Assembly (NCBI GenBank): GCA_019058015.1
Contig: JAHLWH010000079.1
Location: 1 to 14,182, forward strand
Reading direction: 5' to 3'
DNA from: Promethearchaeota archaeon
GTDB taxonomy: Archaea > Asgardarchaeota > Lokiarchaeia > Sigyniarchaeales > SOKP01
DNA: 14,182 nucleotides
A program made the position numbers and the translations under genes. Shown piece by piece: positions 981 through 14,182 of this stretch (its first letter is position 1; each line of letters opens with the position of its first letter). The notes beneath the pieces are model-generated. The model saw nothing but the letters and a program-made list of their open reading frames with translations. It searched no databases and was not told the origin of the DNA.

Positions 981-2195
981 ATGGTAATAGTACGAAGAGA
1001 AGGAGTTCTCTTAGAAGCAACTGAGAACGAGTTTGAAAATCAGGCTGTCTTAAATCCTACGGTGGTTCAGCAAGGAGGTTCATTACATTTATTCTATCGC
1101 GCTGTAAAAGAAGGAAATTATTCAAGTATTGGTTATTGTAAATTGGAAGGACCCTTGAATATCGTAGAAAGGAAAAATAGTCCTATTTTGTTTCCTGAAT
1201 ATGATTATGAAATACATGGTACAGAAGATCCTAGAATCGTTTTTCTTGATGGTACTTATTTTATGTTTTACACGGCCTATGATGGAAAAAATGCGTTAAT
1301 AGCATACGCAACTAGTAAAGACCTAAAAACTTGGGAAAAGCATGGAATAATTTCAGCTAAAATGACATACGATGAAGCAGGGAATTTTTTTCATTTATCG
1401 AAGCTAAAAGAAAAGTATCATTTCTTTATATCATATTATAAGGATGTCGTTGCTGAAGATGTACTTTTATGGGAAAAAGATGCATTCATTTTACCAAAAA
1501 AATATAATAATCAGTTTGCACTGTTCCATAGAGTATTACCAGATATTCAAATTATTTGTTTCGATGATTTTAAAGATTTGACAATCGATTTCTGGAAGGA
1601 TTATCTAAAAAAATTAGGCGATCATGTTGTAATGGAGCCAAAATTTGGATTCGAATCAAGAAATATCGGTGCTGGAGCACCATTAATAGAAACTGAGAGA
1701 GGTTGGCTTATGATATATCATTCTGTAGAAGATTCTAATAGGGGTAAGGTATATTACGCAAGTGCCGCCCTCCTTGATAAACATAATCCATATAAGGTAA
1801 TAGGACGGCTTAAACAACCTCTCTTTTCGCCAACTGAAGATTATGAAAAAATTGGAGATATAGCTAATGTTGTTTTCCCTACAGGCACTGCAATATTTGG
1901 AGAAAGACTTTATATTTATTATGGTGCCGCCGATAAGAGAATAGCCGTAATATCGGTAAATCTGCATAAACTTATTCACGAACTCTTGGCGTCTGAATTA
2001 GAGGTTGGAATTGGTTTTTTAGCAGGGCAGATCTTTAATCTTACAATTAAAGAAGAAAAAAGCTTAACTCAACTTAAGAATTTATTGAACCAAAAAGAGT
2101 ATGTTTTATTGATGGCAATTGGTTGGTTAACAAGGGAAAATAAGATTCTGTGTAGAATTGATTCAGATGAATTAATCGTTAGATCTATAAGGTAA
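981..2195 (+). CDS. GH130 family (DUF377) beta-mannoside phosphorylase/glycosidase-like protein fused to a C-terminal DUF2582-like winged-helix domain
   Basis: GH130 beta-propeller motifs VLNP, LFYRA, EDPRI (catalytic Asp), YTAYDG, KD...LFHR, GAGAPLIETERGWLMIYH, VVFPTG, IYYGAAD. Residues ~341-404 (IGFLAGQIF...LTQLK...LLMAIGWLTRENKI) match the DUF2582 pattern IG..AG.IW...LA(I/L)GWLARE.KI. Confidence 0.88.
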   Translation: MVIVRREGVLLEATENEFENQAVLNPTVVQQGGSLHLFYRAVKEGNYSSIGYCKLEGPLNIVERKNSPILFPEYDYEIHGTEDPRIVFLDGTYFMFYTAYDGKNALIAYATSKDLKTWEKHGIISAKMTYDEAGNFFHLSKLKEKYHFFISYYKDVVAEDVLLWEKDAFILPKKYNNQFALFHRVLPDIQIICFDDFKDLTIDFWKDYLKKLGDHVVMEPKFGFESRNIGAGAPLIETERGWLMIYHSVEDSNRGKVYYASAALLDKHNPYKVIGRLKQPLFSPTEDYEKIGDIANVVFPTGTAIFGERLYIYYGAADKRIAVISVNLHKLIHELLASELEVGIGFLAGQIFNLTIKEEKSLTQLKNLLNQKEYVLLMAIGWLTRENKILCRIDSDELIVRSIR

Positions 2196-2495: not shown

Positions 2496-4697
2496 ATGGA
2501 ATCTAATTGGATCCTTTATATGGCCACATATCCTCCAAGAGAGTGTGGGATTGCTACTTTTACAAAAGATTTAAGAACAGCAATGGATAAAAAATTTTCT
2601 CCTTTTATAAAATCAAAAATCCTCGTTATTAATAATAATAACGATAATAATTATGAAAATATTAAAGATGTTTTATTTGATATTGCTGATAATGATATTT
2701 CAGCATATATAAAGGCTGCGAAAAGAGTAAATGAGATAGATGCTATAAAGCTGATAAATATACAACACGAATTTGGTATTTTTGGTGGAGAATATGGAAA
2801 TTATTTAATAAAATTTCTAGAAATTGTAAAAAAACCGGTCGTTATATCATTCCATACAGTCATCCCAAATCCAGAGGATAAATTAAAGAAAATTGTTCGT
2901 GAGCTAGCAAAAAAATCTTCTTATTTAGTTGTTATGACTAACAAAGGGATCGATATTTTAAGAAAAGATTATGATATTAAAAGAGAGATAATTGTAATAC
3001 CTCATGGAACGCCAACAGTGTCATTTGATGAGAGTATAAAAGAAAAAACAGCAATGGGTATTGATGAGAAAATTGTATTATCGTCTTTTGGCCTTATTAA
3101 CTCCGGGAAAGGTTATGAATATGTAATTGAGTCGTTAACTGAGGTTGTTAAAAAACATCCTAATATTTTATATTTAATAATTGGCGAAACACATCCCATA
3201 GTAAGGAAAAAAGAAGGAGAAAAGTATAGAAATTTTCTCGAGGAAAAAGTGAAGGAGTTTAACCTTGAAAAAAGTGTAAAATTCTATAATCGGTATATGA
3301 CGCTAGAAGAAATAGTAAAATTTCTACTAGCAACAGATATCTATATTTCTTCAAATCTGAATCCTAATCAGATTGTTAGTGGCACTTTAGCATACGCAAT
3401 AGCCTGCGGTAGAGCGATTATCTCTACACCCTTCATTTATGCTAAAGATATTATTTCACCTGAAAGAGGTCTTTTAGTAAAATTCAGAGATCCTAATTCA
3501 TATACTAATGCTCTAATAAAAATATTATCAAATCCCCTCTTAAAAGAAGAAATGGAAAGAAACAATTATTCATTTTCTAGGTGCATGATTTGGCCAAATG
3601 TAGCAATATCTTATTATAATGTTTTCAAGCGAGTTATTCCTGATTTAGAAAAATGTGAAATGTCATATCCAGAAATCAAGTTTGATCATATTATGAATCT
3701 TACGGATGATTTTGGAATATTACAATTTGCAAATTATGCAAAACCAGATAAATTATCTGGATATACTCTAGATGACAATGCTCGAGCCTTGTTAGCTTGT
3801 ACGCTATATTATAAGTTATTTAAAGATAATACTAAATTGAAATTGATGAAAATTTATCTGAATTTTATAAAGTATGTCCACAAAAATGAAAATAAGTTGT
3901 ACAATTTTGTTAATTACAATAAAATTGTAAATCTCGAGCATTGGAGCGAGGACGCCCATGGAAGAGCAATGATGGCTCTTGGTTATTTAATTGCTACAAA
4001 AAATATCCCAATGGAATTAAGAGTAGAGGCAGAACTGATTTTTGAAGATGCGAAAAAAGCTGTAGACAAGATTAGATCTCCAAGAGCAATTTCGTTTATT
4101 TTGATTGGACTCTATTTCTATAATGTAATAAAAAATTCTGAAGTCATTAGAATTAAAAAATTAGCCGATTATCTAGCCCAGCTCTATAAGGATTGTAAGA
4201 GTGAGAAATGGAACTGGTTCGAAAATTACCTTACTTATTCAAATAGTAAATTGCCTGAGGCTCTTTTTTTTTGCTATAAAACAACTAAAGATGACAAATA
4301 TTTAATAATTGCCAAAGAATCTTTAGATTTTCTTATTTCTATTTCGTTTAAAGACGGAAAATTTGCTCCTATTGGTCAGAACGGATGGTATCATAAAAAT
4401 GGCCATAATGCTAGTCATGACCAACAGCCAGTTGATGCTGCTTCAATGGTACAAACATTGAGCGTTGCATATGATACCACTAAAGAGAATAGGTATATGA
4501 AACTTGCCATCGACGCATTTAATTGGTTCTTTGGAAAAAATTCTCTGAATCAAGAAGTTTATAACAATTTAACGGGTGGTTGCCACGATGGTATTGGAGA
4601 GTATTCTCTAAACATGAATCAAGGGGCTGAATCATCAATTTCTTATTTACTTGCTAGACTTTCACTTCAAATATCAAAAGGTTCTATTGCTTTTTAG
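2496..4697 (+). CDS. Two-domain protein: GT4 (GT-B fold) glycosyltransferase plus C-terminal six-hairpin-glycosidase-like (alpha/alpha) domain
   Basis: N-half: TYPPRECGIATF, IQHEFGIFGG, FHT, IPHG, FGLINSGKG, GETHP, QIVSGTLAYAIACG, ISTPF. C-half from ~aa 392: GILQFA, GYTLDDNARAL, SEDAHGRA, WFENYLTYSN, DQQPVDA, GGCHDG, NQGAES, characteristic of the ~750-aa GT fusions that commonly neighbour GH130 genes. Confidence 0.87.
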   Translation: MESNWILYMATYPPRECGIATFTKDLRTAMDKKFSPFIKSKILVINNNNDNNYENIKDVLFDIADNDISAYIKAAKRVNEIDAIKLINIQHEFGIFGGEYGNYLIKFLEIVKKPVVISFHTVIPNPEDKLKKIVRELAKKSSYLVVMTNKGIDILRKDYDIKREIIVIPHGTPTVSFDESIKEKTAMGIDEKIVLSSFGLINSGKGYEYVIESLTEVVKKHPNILYLIIGETHPIVRKKEGEKYRNFLEEKVKEFNLEKSVKFYNRYMTLEEIVKFLLATDIYISSNLNPNQIVSGTLAYAIACGRAIISTPFIYAKDIISPERGLLVKFRDPNSYTNALIKILSNPLLKEEMERNNYSFSRCMIWPNVAISYYNVFKRVIPDLEKCEMSYPEIKFDHIMNLTDDFGILQFANYAKPDKLSGYTLDDNARALLACTLYYKLFKDNTKLKLMKIYLNFIKYVHKNENKLYNFVNYNKIVNLEHWSEDAHGRAMMALGYLIATKNIPMELRVEAELIFEDAKKAVDKIRSPRAISFILIGLYFYNVIKNSEVIRIKKLADYLAQLYKDCKSEKWNWFENYLTYSNSKLPEALFFCYKTTKDDKYLIIAKESLDFLISISFKDGKFAPIGQNGWYHKNGHNASHDQQPVDAASMVQTLSVAYDTTKENRYMKLAIDAFNWFFGKNSLNQEVYNNLTGGCHDGIGEYSLNMNQGAESSISYLLARLSLQISKGSIAF

Positions 4698-4781: not shown

Positions 4782-6143
4782 TTAAGTTTTCTTTTCCCAG
4801 TTGAAATCGAGTTTGATGTATTTTCTAGTATAAAGATAAGCCACAATTAATATTATAGAACATATAGGCCCCCATAATACTAAGCCCATACTATAAGTTA
4901 GAGGTCCTACATCAATATTAGGAAGTGATTCAATAGCAACACCAAGGAAAAACACTCCAAAAGCTTGGAATATATTAAGAATTATAGCAGGAAAGCCAGC
5001 ATAAACTCCTGCCTTTAAATTCCCTGTGCTTTTTTCATCATCCTCAGCAAGATCAGCATATATGATGTAAGGAAATAAGCCCCAACCTCCCAATATTGCA
5101 GCGATACCAATAATAAAAATTAATCCGAATACTAAATTGACAGCAATTGGCATTAGACCTACTAGTGTTAGGGGAAGAAATACAATCCCAAAGAGAATGA
5201 TAATTAGAAGAGTTGGTTTTTTACCTCTTTTCTCTATTAATTTTCTCCATATATAAAAGAAAATCAAAACACCAAAAATAAAACTTACAGCAACAATTAA
5301 ATATTCAGTTGTACCAAAATCTAATACGACTTGAGTGTAGGTTAACATCACAGTAGATATCTGGGACCAGGCTAAGCTTGAGATCCCTATCATAAGAATG
5401 ATCTTTAGGAAATTCTTATTTTTTATGATGATTTTAATACTTTCCTTTAAATTAGTATCGATCTCATAATGTGGCTCTGTTGGCATTAGAAAGGCGACTG
5501 TATAGAATAAAACCATTACAATAACTCCAAATAATATTGTAAGTATTAAAAAAGTTGATGGCATAGGAGCATTTATATCAGTTTCTAAATCGCTAACAAA
5601 ACTTGTTAAAACAAGCATTGACATAAGTATCATGATTGCATTTCCGAAATAATTGAAATAATTCTGCCATTGTGAAACTTTAGGGCGTGATTTAACTTCA
5701 AATTGCTCAGGCATCCAAGCTTGATATACTGTTGTCATAGAATAACCTATCTTAAAGACAATGTCCCAAATTAAAAACCATAAAAATAAAGCAATCTTAT
5801 CAGTAAGATCAGGTAAGATTAAAGATGGTAATAATAAAGCAATAAAGGAAATTGTCAGTAAGGGAGTAATTATTATTATATATGGCTTTCTTCTTCCCCA
5901 CCGAGTATATTTTGCATCACTAATCCATCCGAAGAAAAATTGACTTAAACCTATTACAATGAATCCGATAGCTTGGGCAGAAGTGACAAGAATTGCTGGA
6001 ACTCCAAAACCTACATAATAAAGAGTGAATAAAGCAAAGCCTTCAATTCCAAGAACCATTGCTGAGCTGAGCCTTGCAGATCCATAAAATACTATTTTAC
6101 CTGTAGAGCTTTTACTCCTTTCGAAATCTTTTACTTCGTTCAT
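4782..6143 (-). CDS. MFS transporter, GPH/MelB-like (MFS_2) family
   Basis: About 12 hydrophobic segments. GWISDAKYTRWGRRKPYI loop motif, KNKNF after the central loop, KRGKK repeat motif, ADLAEDDE...GxxKAGVY. SD-like AGGT just upstream of the ATG. Confidence 0.9.
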   Translation of the reverse strand: MNEVKDFERSKSSTGKIVFYGSARLSSAMVLGIEGFALFTLYYVGFGVPAILVTSAQAIGFIVIGLSQFFFGWISDAKYTRWGRRKPYIIIITPLLTISFIALLLPSLILPDLTDKIALFLWFLIWDIVFKIGYSMTTVYQAWMPEQFEVKSRPKVSQWQNYFNYFGNAIMILMSMLVLTSFVSDLETDINAPMPSTFLILTILFGVIVMVLFYTVAFLMPTEPHYEIDTNLKESIKIIIKNKNFLKIILMIGISSLAWSQISTVMLTYTQVVLDFGTTEYLIVAVSFIFGVLIFFYIWRKLIEKRGKKPTLLIIILFGIVFLPLTLVGLMPIAVNLVFGLIFIIGIAAILGGWGLFPYIIYADLAEDDEKSTGNLKAGVYAGFPAIILNIFQAFGVFFLGVAIESLPNIDVGPLTYSMGLVLWGPICSIILIVAYLYTRKYIKLDFNWEKKT

Positions 6144-6258: not shown

Positions 6259-7269
6259 TTATTCTTCTTCTTCCTCTTCATGCCATCCCAGATCAGATAA
6301 AATATCTTGAAATTGTTCATTTTCTTCTATTTCAAATTCAGCATCGTATTCAGATGCAAATTTAAATTCATTTAAACCTTGAGGGGGTTCAAAACTTTGA
6401 TAATTAAAGCTTTCTTCAGGTATTTCTTGTTCAATTTCAGGAACTGGTTCTGTAATGGGCACTTCTTCTGGAATTATTTCTTCTGATACAATTCCTTCTT
6501 CAATTTCCATAGGTGTATAATCATCAAGAGGAATTGGTGGCACTTCATCGCCATATACCTTAATTCCATATAATTCCTCGGATTTTTGTGCTTTATTGAT
6601 GGCTTCTGCTTTTTCTTCGGCAGTTATTGGGATTGTTTTTCCTTCTATTGGGATCTCCATCATCATAGATTGAGGAATGGAGACTATATTATTTTGAACT
6701 ATTTCCTCCTCCTCTCCTTCAGCACCCCATGATTTTAAAAATTGTAGAGTCGCTTCTATTGCTTTTTGATCTTCTTTAGCAGATGGTTTTAATATTCCTA
6801 CTCCCTTTTCTGCTTGTATTTTTTCCTTTTCTGCTTGCATTTTCTTTAATTCTTCTTCTTCAAGATTTATTGCCATTTCCGTTACTTCTCCACCTGAAAT
6901 TAATTCATTAATTTTCCGGGCGATTTCTCTCAAATAACCCATATAATAACCGATTTTTAATACGTTCTCTAACGCTCCGAAAATAATATATTCATCATTT
7001 ACAGCCATTAATATACCATAACCTTTCTCATTGTGGAGTAGGATTTCTCTTAAGGCTCCATGTTCTACAGATTGACTTAAACGAATTCCAAGATCAATTA
7101 AAGCTGTGCTTGATGCAGAAATTGCGTCAGCATCTAATTCAGCTGATTTTGCTGAAGCAACTTTCATTCCAATACGTGAAAGTACAGATAACTGTTCAAG
7201 ATCTGTTTTCTCCTCTTCTTTTTGAAGGATTTCCATGAGACTATTCTGAATTTGTGGAGAAAGCGACAT
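6259..7269 (-). CDS. Roadblock/LC7 (MglB-like) domain protein with long acidic, Pro-rich C-terminal extension
   Basis: aa 1-~125 show the Roadblock pattern (helix; SVLSRIGMKVAS; DADAISASSTALIDLGIRLS..VEHGALREILLHNEKGYGILMAV; IGYYMGYLREIARKI). The rest is Glu/Pro/Ile-rich low complexity ending LSDLGWHEEEEEE. Confidence 0.8.
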   Translation of the reverse strand: MSLSPQIQNSLMEILQKEEEKTDLEQLSVLSRIGMKVASAKSAELDADAISASSTALIDLGIRLSQSVEHGALREILLHNEKGYGILMAVNDEYIIFGALENVLKIGYYMGYLREIARKINELISGGEVTEMAINLEEEELKKMQAEKEKIQAEKGVGILKPSAKEDQKAIEATLQFLKSWGAEGEEEEIVQNNIVSIPQSMMMEIPIEGKTIPITAEEKAEAINKAQKSEELYGIKVYGDEVPPIPLDDYTPMEIEEGIVSEEIIPEEVPITEPVPEIEQEIPEESFNYQSFEPPQGLNEFKFASEYDAEFEIEENEQFQDILSDLGWHEEEEEE

Positions 7270-9676: not shown

Positions 9677-10060
9677 TTGTCTGATATAAAAACACTTGAG
9701 TCGATCTTAAAAAAATTAATAACTTCAGTACCGGAAATTGAAGCCGCTGCAATAGTTTCAATGGAGGGGTTTCCAATAGCGAGCGCTTTGCCAGCAGGTA
9801 TAGATGACGCAAAGATCTCTGCGATGACTGCAGCAATCCTTTCACTTGGAGAGGTTGCAGTACAAGAAAGAAATATGGGTGACCTAGAGGTGACTTTTAT
9901 TGAAGGAGAAGATGGTTTTATAATTACGCGTAACGCGGGAAAAAATGCAGCGCTTATAATCTCTACCAACCCAAACATTACACGAGGGCTAATCTTTTTA
10001 GAATGTAAAAGAACATGCGAAAAAATCGAAGAAATTCTTAAAAAAAGAGATAACCAATAA
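9677..10060 (+). CDS. Roadblock/LC7 domain protein (stand-alone, TTG start)
   Basis: IEAAAIVSMEGFPIASALP..IDDAKISAMTAAILSLGE.....GDL....IEGEDG.I....AGKNAAL...GLIFLE is the typical archaeal Roadblock/MglB-like signature. Confidence 0.92.
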   Translation: MSDIKTLESILKKLITSVPEIEAAAIVSMEGFPIASALPAGIDDAKISAMTAAILSLGEVAVQERNMGDLEVTFIEGEDGFIITRNAGKNAALIISTNPNITRGLIFLECKRTCEKIEEILKKRDNQ

Positions 10061-13151: not shown

Positions 13152-14182
13152 CTACAGATCAATTTCTCTCATCTGAGCTCTGAGCTCTATTCTTTTTTCT
13201 TCCGGGAGTTTCCATAATAATCGAAAGACCAGGATTGCTATAACCGAAAGGATTATTGGAACTAAAGCCATATCTGCGATAATTCCCCATTGAGCTAAAG
13301 GTGCTTGAACATCTGCATTTGGGTCAAAACCAGTGATAAGGTGAGTGATTGCAAAAATAATAATAGTGAGTGGTACTGATGCGCGTAATAAAACATGTAA
13401 TATACCATTATAAGCCCCCTCTACACGTCGCTTTTCCTGTACCACCGTTTGGTCGATCACTGATGCGAATAGGGGTTCATCCGCAACCTGCACAGCACAA
13501 ACAAAAATGCCCGCTACGGCTGAAGCGATAAAAGCTGAAATTAATATATTACTAAAAATTAGGATTGGGACCGTAGAAACCGCCATTCCTATCATACCGA
13601 TATATAGAACTTTAATCTCCTTAACTTTACCTAATACCCAGAGCCAGAAAGGAATTGTTAAGAAACCCGTTATTAAGTAACCTAATAGAATAATGCTTCC
13701 CCAAAATTGTTCTATTTGTAAAATATATCGTGTGTAATAAATAACTGATGCAATAACTATATCCATATAGACACCTAGCATCGCCCAAACAATAAGTATT
13801 GCAAGAAAATTTCGATTCTTCAAGAGTTTTTTCATTATATTGAAAAATCTTACCTTCTCTTTGTGTTGGGCTTCGCTTTTTAAAACTTGTTCAATCATTT
13901 CCTTGTCTTCACGAACCCCAGGAATCCCTAATACTATAAAGGGGAGGGCGATCAACACAATAATTAAGCTCGCTGTAAAAAAGCTTGATTTATCTCCAAA
14001 CACGATAACCAATGGTGGGAACACAATACCGAAGAATTGCATTGCCGTCCATCCAACTAGGTTCATCCCGGTAACATAACGACGATCTCTATCAGTACGG
14101 AATTTTTGAGGATATAATGCCGAATAATTTAGCGAAAAGGCCGTATAAAACCATTCATATGCACAAAGAAACAATATGAGCC
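13152..14182 (-). CDS. MFS transporter, GPH/MelB-like family (5' end outside the window)
   Basis: Frame stays open to the window edge. ALYP.KFR...RR, KNRNF, VID......RRVEGAYNG, GFDP motifs and multiple TM segments. Confidence 0.9.
   Translation of the reverse strand, partial: LILFLCAYEWFYTAFSLNYSALYPQKFRTDRDRRYVTGMNLVGWTAMQFFGIVFPPLVIVFGDKSSFFTASLIIVLIALPFIVLGIPGVREDKEMIEQVLKSEAQHKEKVRFFNIMKKLLKNRNFLAILIVWAMLGVYMDIVIASVIYYTRYILQIEQFWGSIILLGYLITGFLTIPFWLWVLGKVKEIKVLYIGMIGMAVSTVPILIFSNILISAFIASAVAGIFVCAVQVADEPLFASVIDQTVVQEKRRVEGAYNGILHVLLRASVPLTIIIFAITHLITGFDPNADVQAPLAQWGIIADMALVPIILSVIAILVFRLLWKLPEEKRIELRAQMREIDL

Follow-up and report, generated by a model that had tools for sequence, protein, structure and literature searches.

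Enzymes of glycoside hydrolase family GH130 use the aspartate of an (E/Y)-D-P-R motif as their catalytic proton donor. A review describes the family as largely mono-modular (PMC8950772), in agreement with the initial annotation of the DNA analysed here, which held that GH130 enzymes usually have a single domain, and the solved members closest in sequence to the protein reported below, Teth514_1788 and Teth514_1789, are β-1,2-oligomannan and β-1,2-mannobiose phosphorylases of GH130_6 (PMC12814180). Quaternary structure varies across GH130, which includes dimers of different modes as well as monomers, and Teth514_1788 is a dimer both in the crystal and in solution (PMC12814180). DUF2582 (PF10771) is a widespread family of small winged-helix proteins with two solved structures, to which no function is assigned in the literature that we searched. 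Here we describe a gene that joins the two, located at positions 981–2195 on the forward strand of a 14,182-nucleotide stretch of DNA from a Promethearchaeota archaeon (assembly GCA_019058015.1, contig JAHLWH010000079.1); this whole stretch is called the window. It is highly probable that the gene encodes a cytoplasmic GH130 enzyme of the β-1,2-mannoside phosphorylase type with intact motifs, that it opens a widespread cassette in which it is paired with a GT4-(α/α)6 gene, and that one archaeal branch of this enzyme gained a C-terminal DUF2582 domain, which has been kept under purifying selection.

The fusion gene is a single open reading frame (ORF) of 404 amino acids, running from an ATG at 981 to a TAA stop at 2193–2195, with neither a stop nor a change of frame between its two parts, just as the initial annotation had proposed. 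In Pfam scans, Glyco_hydro_130 (PF04041) matched residues 20–332 (positions 1038–1976) with an E-value of 5e-51 and 174 bits against a cut-off of 26. When the whole protein was searched, DUF2582 matched residues 344–401 (positions 2010–2183) with an E-value of 2.3e-11 and a score of 44.1 bits, the gathering threshold being 24.2. The initial annotation had correctly drawn the added domain from position 2001, which is codon 341 and thus just ahead of the Pfam match, and the stretch 2001–2192 scanned by itself gave DUF2582 at an E-value of 8.2e-13 and 48.8 bits. A genome-wide search returned the fusion tail, at 47.7 bits, as the sole DUF2582 of this genome, and two more GH130 paralogs, on contigs C222 and C240, are both single-domain. 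The domains are separated by a linker (positions 1989–2009, residues 337–343) between the C-terminal helix of the GH130 part and helix 1 of the winged helix-turn-helix domain, the sequence and length of which differ among orthologs by up to 4 residues (around alignment columns 373–384). In the full-length model the junction forms an unbroken helix over residues 328–354, and the predicted local distance difference test score (pLDDT) drops to 77–78 over residues 331–350. The N-terminus, read from the sequence, has no hydrophobic signal-like stretch. Judged by Pfam score, fold and family motifs, the fusion protein is a member of both GH130 and DUF2582.

The fused architecture is found in many archaea. 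In the whole-protein cluster search, the counts of which concern the best 120 database clusters, both Pfam families were present in 102, with P0088 and P0090 added by the domain profile; the sources named are Promethearchaeota, Hodarchaeales, Helarchaeota and Hermod-, Loki-, Thor-, Nano- and Woesearchaeota, and NCBI names many such clusters 'winged helix-turn-helix domain-containing protein'. Gene context was read from two separate sets of 80 loci, one fetched from genomes, with one genome per species, and the other from metagenomes. The genome loci divided into 22 fused, 57 unfused and 1 that was cut off, and the fused form occurred in 6 of the metagenome loci. Orthologs with at least 63% identity were present in 8 of 41 relatives of this genome, all eight of them fused with open frames of 408–423 amino acids, and unfused orthologs are known at 65–71% identity. 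The initial annotation had pointed to a stop in relatives near 1995–2005 as the sign of two separate genes; the frame is open there in the 22 genome loci, the 6 metagenome loci and the genomes of the 8 relatives, and because these amount to 36 independent read-through copies, a stop or frame change at about 1990–2010 is very unlikely.

In a catalytic-domain tree of 84 GH130 domains, the fused rows group within the archaeal part and all bacterial rows are unfused; the fused label needs four changes on this tree, of which well-supported branches force just one. The DUF2582 tree, built on 105 domains, unites all 29 fused rows in a single clade (99% support), at a resolution that is low because the alignment is short. 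From these sequences it looks as though the fusion arose once, within an archaeal branch comprising Asgard, DPANN and some Methanosarcinales metagenome-assembled genomes (MAGs). The codons of the tail show constraint: identity at the first and second positions was 0.82–0.93 versus 0.69–0.82 at the third, in 8 of 8 pairwise comparisons, and by the same measure the constraint is weaker than on the catalytic part. The initial annotation knew of no described example of this protein, and our literature searches likewise returned no paper on the GH130-DUF2582 architecture and none for 'DUF2582' or for GH130 with 'winged helix' (supplements not covered); nothing on such a protein was found for GH130 with Asgard archaea, judging by titles and abstracts, or under 'PF10771', judged partly by title. 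The architecture itself is common in public sequence data and is already domain-annotated in public databases, that of NCBI included.

The catalytic part is a five-bladed β-propeller, the top 35 structure matches of which were all GH130. Its closest solved sequences are 9FJ8 (Teth514_1788; E-value 6.4e-48) and 7FIP (Teth514_1789; E-value 3.2e-46), and the full-length model, with a pLDDT of 92.4, reached target TM-scores (TMt) of 0.84–0.87 to 9fj8, 9gph and 7fip (0.86 to 9fj8) at 32–34% identity. In the pairwise alignment the EDPRIV motif is the same as in Teth514_1788, and the catalytic D83, which corresponds to the proton-donating aspartate of the family motif (PMC4599007), lies within E82-D83-P84-R85. 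Glutamate instead of tyrosine directly before the catalytic aspartate is the mark of β-1,2 GH130 enzymes (PMC12814180, PMC4599007), and the residue at that place in the fusion protein is E82, which points to a β-1,2 enzyme. E82, D83 and P84 are invariant in 31 orthologs, and the 73 invariant columns of the ortholog alignment also include R40, K166-D167, R184, H247 and D318. K166 and R184 match the phosphorylase Teth514_1788, and together with the invariant R40 they are candidates for the three basic phosphate-binding residues by which phosphorylases differ from hydrolases. Among NCBIfam models the phosphorylase model (203 bits) scored above the β-1,2-mannosidase model (137 bits), both under their cut-offs; for the β-1,2-mannobiose phosphorylase equivalog, NF052550, the cut-off is 450 bits. 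By sequence, then, the enzyme is not an equivalog of the characterised β-1,2-mannobiose phosphorylase, and from this sub-equivalog score together with an insertion of about 40 residues we conclude that it belongs to a distinct clade. Its catalytic part resembles β-1,2-mannoside phosphorylases, and the substrate assignment is putative.

The insertion specific to this clade (positions 1353–1475, about residues 125–165) appears as a gap in the alignment with 9fj8, in which residues 124 to 166 of the query stand opposite residues 137 to 143 of the chain, and it is absent from the Thermoanaerobacter enzymes. The model places helices at 130–137 and 143–156, and K143, Y146 and F149 are invariant in the ortholog alignment. 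When two copies of the protein were predicted together, the homodimer score was 0.48 and the best of 3 controls scored 0.00; of proteins with solved structures, 20 of 30 known as pairs pass the mark set for a homodimer, as does 1 of 23 known as single chains. Between runs at least 76% of the contacts agreed, with a partner pLDDT of at least 89, and the confident contacts have insertion residues 141–156 as their core, together with 188, 213–227 and 251–256. Because the prediction used an alignment built for this analysis and related GH130 dimers are already solved, this pass may partly reflect likeness. A symmetric homodimer formed through the clade-specific helical insertion is thus predicted, supported but not proven, and such a dimer would present two winged helices. 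The idea that the winged helix itself is the dimer interface was also considered; no confident contact fell within residues 337–404, which leaves the idea without support, but since unlisted residues count as uncertain, this is no evidence against contact by the tail.

We then turn to the tail. Modelled in isolation from 24 aligned sequences, it folded with a pLDDT of 95.8 into the canonical winged helix that had been anticipated, in the order helix, short strand, helix, helix and β-hairpin. Its best structural match was 2L01 (BVU3908), with a Foldseek query TM-score (TMq) of 0.82 and a root-mean-square deviation (rmsd) of 1.9, and with a VIA Z of 11.0 and an rmsd of 1.6 over 68 residues; a profile built from 13 fused and 11 short DUF2582 sequences matched 2L01 with an E-value of 1.8e-13 and 2L02 with 5.2e-13. 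Both family signatures are present in the tail, IGxxAGxI in helix 1 and GWL(A/T)RExK in helix 3. Across 24 sequences, fused and stand-alone, the columns of G381, W382 and L383 do not vary and those of I, A, G and K are conserved to 90% or more, and helix 3 (MAxGWLAREnK) is the most conserved stretch of the DUF2582 family, whatever the genomic context. The net charge of the domain ranges from -4 to +6 and is +2 in this protein. After DUF2582 itself, the next matches in both profile and structure searches were the ArsR/SmtB-type proteins HlyU, NolR and SqrR, followed by MarR and PadR. HlyU was borderline by profile (E-value 0.018–0.02) and matched in structure with a Foldseek E-value of 3e-4 and a Z of 10.0 (rmsd 0.9 over 60 residues), a score at which it is tied with unrelated winged helices: Z-alpha domains and the winged helices of RPA2, Rpc34, ESCRT-II and cullin also reach Z 9–10.

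DUF2582 had been presented as usually a stand-alone protein of about 65 residues, and this holds in the main, since the domain is mostly free, with a length of about 65–85 amino acids in most of 74 non-fused metagenome loci, but it also occurs as double and triple tandems, as two copies with a coiled coil (290–360 amino acids) and as a CBS pair followed by DUF2582. GH130 was its sole catalytic partner among the architectures met in these searches. The coiled-coil proteins (P0155, P0163, P0167, P0191, P0207 and about 40 alike, all of 290–360 amino acids) have two N-terminal DUF2582 domains followed by a long coiled coil, with weak ATG16-, tropomyosin- and crescentin-like matches and a scaffold-like layout. 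A search of the 69-residue tail as a single sequence against 1.84 billion representatives gave 25 matches, two of them spurious low-complexity hits (P0124, P0145), and is too insensitive for a census; a word-based search with the tail alone returned close orthologs only, and its alignment-based repeat was informative.

The partner in the cassette is the gene at 2496–4697 on the same (+) strand, which encodes 733 amino acids with a GT4 domain at about 1–380 (Pfam Glycos_transf_1 at an E-value of 2.5e-16) and an (α/α)6-like C-terminal domain that has weak GH88, GH127 and C5-epimerase matches. No characterised relative was found for this protein, nor for the GH130 protein of the clade. In this clade, 67 GH130 genes, 18 of them fused and 49 unfused, are immediately followed by a GT4-(α/α)6-like gene of 730–800 amino acids, and wherever the downstream DNA of a fused gene was recovered, this was the next gene (18 of 18). 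The cassette ranges over Asgard and DPANN archaea, Bacteroidota (Bacteroides intestinalis, Proteiniphilum), candidate phyla radiation (CPR) bacteria, Omnitrophota and Planctomycetia, and it may make and recycle a cytoplasmic β-mannoside. The spacing of the two genes differs between its forms, with a median GH130-to-GT4 gap of 184.5 nucleotides (range 40–353) in the 18 fused cases versus 2 nucleotides in the 49 unfused. Bacterial pairs abut or overlap by 4–23 nucleotides, many gaps being at -4 or -11, and in 7 of 8 unfused archaeal genes the gap was between -4 and 136 nucleotides. At one metagenome locus (L110:1703-5603) the fused GH130 is followed by a far longer partner, an open frame of more than 1300 amino acids that matches the GT4 part over its first 387 residues, and at six archaeal loci (L007, L022, L042, L060, L061 and L020) a second, divergent and unfused GH130 paralog lies beside the cassette.

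The two non-coding regions of the cassette were compared among relatives. The AT-rich spacer before the GT4 gene (positions 2196–2495, 300 nucleotides), in which no constrained element was detected, has 78–82% pairwise identity to relatives versus 86% at third codon positions of the same pairs. A conserved RNA or operator in this spacer was considered and rejected: the spacer looked 88% conserved in 5 close loci, yet its pairwise identity of 78–82% is below that at third codon positions. The spacer holds trivial ORFs only, of 31–33 amino acids, and its AT-rich palindromes (for example 2222–2233) are not kept in relatives. Upstream of the fusion gene, in the intergenic region 786–980, the last 45 or so nucleotides before the ATG are conserved among close relatives, and no palindrome of this region is common to diverse fused loci. 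Across 13 diverse fused loci, comparison of upstream regions with spacers included gave no common 7-, 8- or 9-mer in excess of 100 shuffles, and no Rfam family was found anywhere in the window.

The initial annotation regarded the fusion as a Rosetta-stone clue to the function of DUF2582 and raised the possibility that stand-alone DUF2582 genes adjoin GH130/GT4 loci elsewhere. No such neighbour was found: none of the 57 unfused GH130 genome loci had a separate DUF2582 ORF within its flanks, and neither GH130 nor a like GT4 was near any of the 74 stand-alone DUF2582 metagenome loci or any of 5 such loci in three genomes. B. intestinalis and Proteiniphilum have free DUF2582 genes on contigs other than that of the cassette, and Gillisia and Pedobacter, the other two of the four bacterial cassette genomes, have the cassette and no DUF2582 match in the searched genome. 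What remains of the clue is a looser association with sugar-polymer enzymes. A scan of the immediate neighbours of free DUF2582 genes (70 loci, 113 proteins) placed 8 of the 70 amid α-glucan (glycogen) enzymes, on the same strand and with gaps of 9–302 nucleotides. Glycogen-synthase-like GT4/GT5 genes directly adjoin the free domain in L113, L117, L129 and L132, a GH13 branching enzyme does so in L114–L116, and GH57 with DUF3536 in L114–L116 and L163. Five of these eight loci fall among the seven free copies most similar to the fusion tail, and L117, on a long branch, alone among the free copies falls within the fused-domain clade of the 105-domain tree. Other repeated contexts were Hsp20 fused or adjacent to DUF2934 (L119, L120, L122, L123), metal-efflux HlyD/HMBD (L143, L147, L158) and DUF72 (L134, L172). 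Thus, DUF2582 is loosely tied to sugar-polymer enzymes.

As to what the tail does, the initial annotation had offered a 'trigger enzyme' and a docking module as possibilities. Our best guess, which we put forward tentatively, is that the enzyme regulates itself, with the winged helix as its DNA-binding output. In this scheme the winged helix would bind nucleic acid, the dimeric enzyme would sit on DNA at or near its own cassette, and occupancy of the active site by mannose-1-phosphate, a β-1,2-mannoside or phosphate might alter the presentation of the two winged helices. The cassette could then be transcribed in step with the sugar supply, especially its GT4 gene, which fused lineages set off by a separate spacer of 40–353 nucleotides, and the whole would act as a one-component 'enzyme plus regulator'. 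Several observations favour this scheme: ArsR/SmtB-type regulators come next after DUF2582 in both kinds of search, free DUF2582 genes are found in many unrelated operons, as local regulators are, the CBS-pair protein has the sensor-then-output layout of one-component regulators, each of the two solved DUF2582 entries contains two chains, and the GH130-GT4 spacer is long in fused lineages.

A number of points weigh against a DNA-binding regulator. The winged-helix fold is generic, and several of the domains tied at Z 9–10 bind proteins, not DNA. The regulatory regions of the 13 diverse fused loci had no k-mer in common beyond shuffled controls, although an operator is still compatible with this result because operators can co-evolve with their regulator, and the 300-nucleotide spacer evolves no slower than third codon positions. 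The net charge of the domain is near zero. Helix 3 is conserved in every context, which suits one common ligand better than many operators, and the tandem (two- and threefold) and coiled-coil forms look more like scaffolds. The contrast in spacer length rests on essentially one lineage, and Asgard genome style alone may account for it. Moreover, the C-terminal winged helix of DprA, which has been studied, is a protein-recruitment module that recruits ComM (PMC12012524). The bolder form of the proposal, in which the Asgard and DPANN enzyme is an active β-1,2-mannoside phosphorylase that also serves as transcription factor for its cassette of mannoside synthesis and breakdown, sensing mannose-1-phosphate or mannoside in its active site and relaying the signal to DNA through the winged helix, we consider unlikely. 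If true, it would be the first glycoside phosphorylase to act as a 'trigger enzyme' and would give DUF2582 its first function, and free DUF2582 proteins would become local regulators of storage-glycan, heat-shock and metal-efflux operons.

Nearly as likely as a DNA-binding regulator, and so possible while still doubtful, is that the tail is a docking module. The winged helix would then bind a protein, most plausibly the adjacent GT4-(α/α)6 protein, a GT-B glycosyltransferase, and would coordinate the making and breaking of the mannoside or channel mannose-1-phosphate. The unfailing presence of the GT4-(α/α)6 gene after the fused gene (18 of 18) suits this idea, and so does the overlapping or abutting bacterial gene pair (median 2 nucleotides), an arrangement typical of proteins made together; the archaeal fused forms have lost such coupling and gained a tether. 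Free DUF2582 genes also lie beside the glycogen-synthase-like genes and between branching enzyme and GH57 at the loci listed above, and L117, for all the length of its branch, is the sole stand-alone copy to join the fused-domain clade. The conservation of helix 3 in all contexts, the tandem and coiled-coil forms and the precedent of DprA with ComM (PMC12012524) are likewise what a docking surface would lead one to expect. Docking on the GT4 partner is, however, harder to reconcile with the unfused orthologs in 57 loci, which manage without a nearby DUF2582, with Gillisia and Pedobacter, which have the cassette and no match to the domain, and with the other free-DUF2582 contexts (Hsp20, metal efflux, DUF72), which have no common protein partner.

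Less likely again is that the domain is an anchor for a non-protein ligand common to the family, whether a glycan, a small molecule or a nucleic-acid shape of the kind that Z-alpha domains bind, and so localises the enzyme instead of regulating genes. A ligand of this kind could account for the invariant or nearly invariant G-W-L and R-E-x-K of helix 3 in all contexts and for the recurrence of DUF2582 in clusters of sugar-polymer enzymes (8 of 70 loci), and the Z-alpha domains of ZBP1 (Z 10.1, rmsd 1.6) and PKZ (Z 10.0, rmsd 1.4) are listed as the non-family matches of lowest rmsd. Yet the Z-alpha contact residues are not visibly common to the two, as judged by eye from an alignment, and most DUF2582 contexts are unrelated to glycans. 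We know of no precedent for a winged helix that binds a glycan, which also counts against an anchor.

It is more improbable still that the tail is a structural add-on without a function of its own, there just to make the enzyme more stable or soluble or to adjust its oligomeric state. The single continuous helix modelled across the junction would fit such a role, and GH130 quaternary structure does vary (PMC12814180), but the DUF2582 signature residues are fully kept, a domain held rigidly would be turned by a linker whose length differs by as many as 4 residues, the dimer contacts predicted with confidence are at other sites (unlisted residues being uncertain), and orthologs at 65–71% identity exist without the tail. 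That two separate genes were merged by an assembly or sequencing error is virtually ruled out: the window does derive from a MAG and the neighbouring gene at 121–785 does show a frame break, but the same unbroken frame recurs in the 36 copies counted above, in independent assemblies and down to about 55% identity.

That neighbouring gene, which runs divergently on the (-) strand at 121–785 and encodes about 215 amino acids of no assigned family, is split by a frame break near 570–580 into ORFs at 564–785 (73 amino acids) and 121–576 (151 amino acids), and is either a pseudogene or the site of a sequencing error. Its homologs are single ORFs of 203–220 amino acids in L002, L019, L016, L023 and L015. 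Members of the family lie next to the cassette in 9 archaeal loci: those of Asgard archaea are upstream and divergent, and those in Woesearchaeota, Altiarchaeota and Methanosarcinales MAGs come after GT4. The family has a D-G-H-H motif, and a single homolog gave a weak ParBc_2 match with an E-value of 0.0085, below the cut-off. Two MFS_2 transporter genes of the glycoside-pentoside-hexuronide type are present on the (-) strand at 4782–6143 and 13152–14174, the first of them directly after GT4 and on the strand opposite to it. As a candidate cassette member the transporter at 4782–6143 was rejected, a homolog being found in 0 of the 80 fetched loci, though many flanks were short. Further along the window, a gene at 6259–7269 (-) encodes a very acidic protein of 336 amino acids with a C-terminal run of glutamates and no Pfam match, and a Roadblock/LC7 domain gene at 9677–10060 (+) is overlapped by an antisense ORF of 120 amino acids.

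The interest of the fusion lies in the orphan domain and in the cassette. Handles on DUF2582 are few, and a conserved, selected covalent link to an enzyme whose chemistry is known provides one; the free DUF2582 genes in glycogen-enzyme clusters are a second, independent one, both handles pointing to cytoplasmic sugar-polymer turnover. The protein is, moreover, a natural two-domain form within the largely single-domain GH130, in an uncharacterised cassette that is kept from Asgard archaea to Bacteroides (67 gene pairs), and it is a ready-made test object for the ligand of the domain, be it DNA, the adjacent glycosyltransferase or a glycan. In summary, we regard the fusion as a moderately interesting handle on an orphan domain and its cassette and not as a demonstrated new mechanism.

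The fusion protein can be compared with known systems. Dimeric proteins in which a metabolite-binding or catalytic domain carries one small winged helix are known, and this is the layout proposed here; their DNA binding and their operators are well established, whereas for the fusion DNA binding is a proposal and the 13 diverse fused loci yielded no operator-like motif. DprA of Gram-negative bacteria (PDB 6GW7) is likewise a larger protein that ends in a small winged helix, and HHsearch assigned DprA tails to one of three families, PF17782, PF10771 and PF15977 (PMC12012524). DprA, however, is another host protein in another process, likened here to the fusion by layout, and its description concerns neither GH130 nor stand-alone DUF2582 (PMC12012524). 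BVU3908 (2L01) and BT2368 (2L02) of Bacteroides belong to the same Pfam family as the tail, carry both signatures and share its fold (TMq 0.82 and 0.77; Z 11.0 and 10.0), but they are free proteins of 77–82 amino acids, with two chains per entry, whereas the tail is covalently bound to an enzyme. Teth514_1788 and Teth514_1789, finally, have in common with the fusion enzyme the five-bladed propeller, the EDPRIV motif with its glutamate beside the catalytic aspartate, and other residues of the active-site region. They differ from it in being single-domain proteins of about 300 amino acids, to which the fusion adds the insertion of about 40 residues (125–165), a winged-helix tail of 68 residues and, in its genome, a GT4-(α/α)6 partner gene; and the predicted insertion-based mode of dimerization would be closed to Teth514_1788, which is without the insertion.

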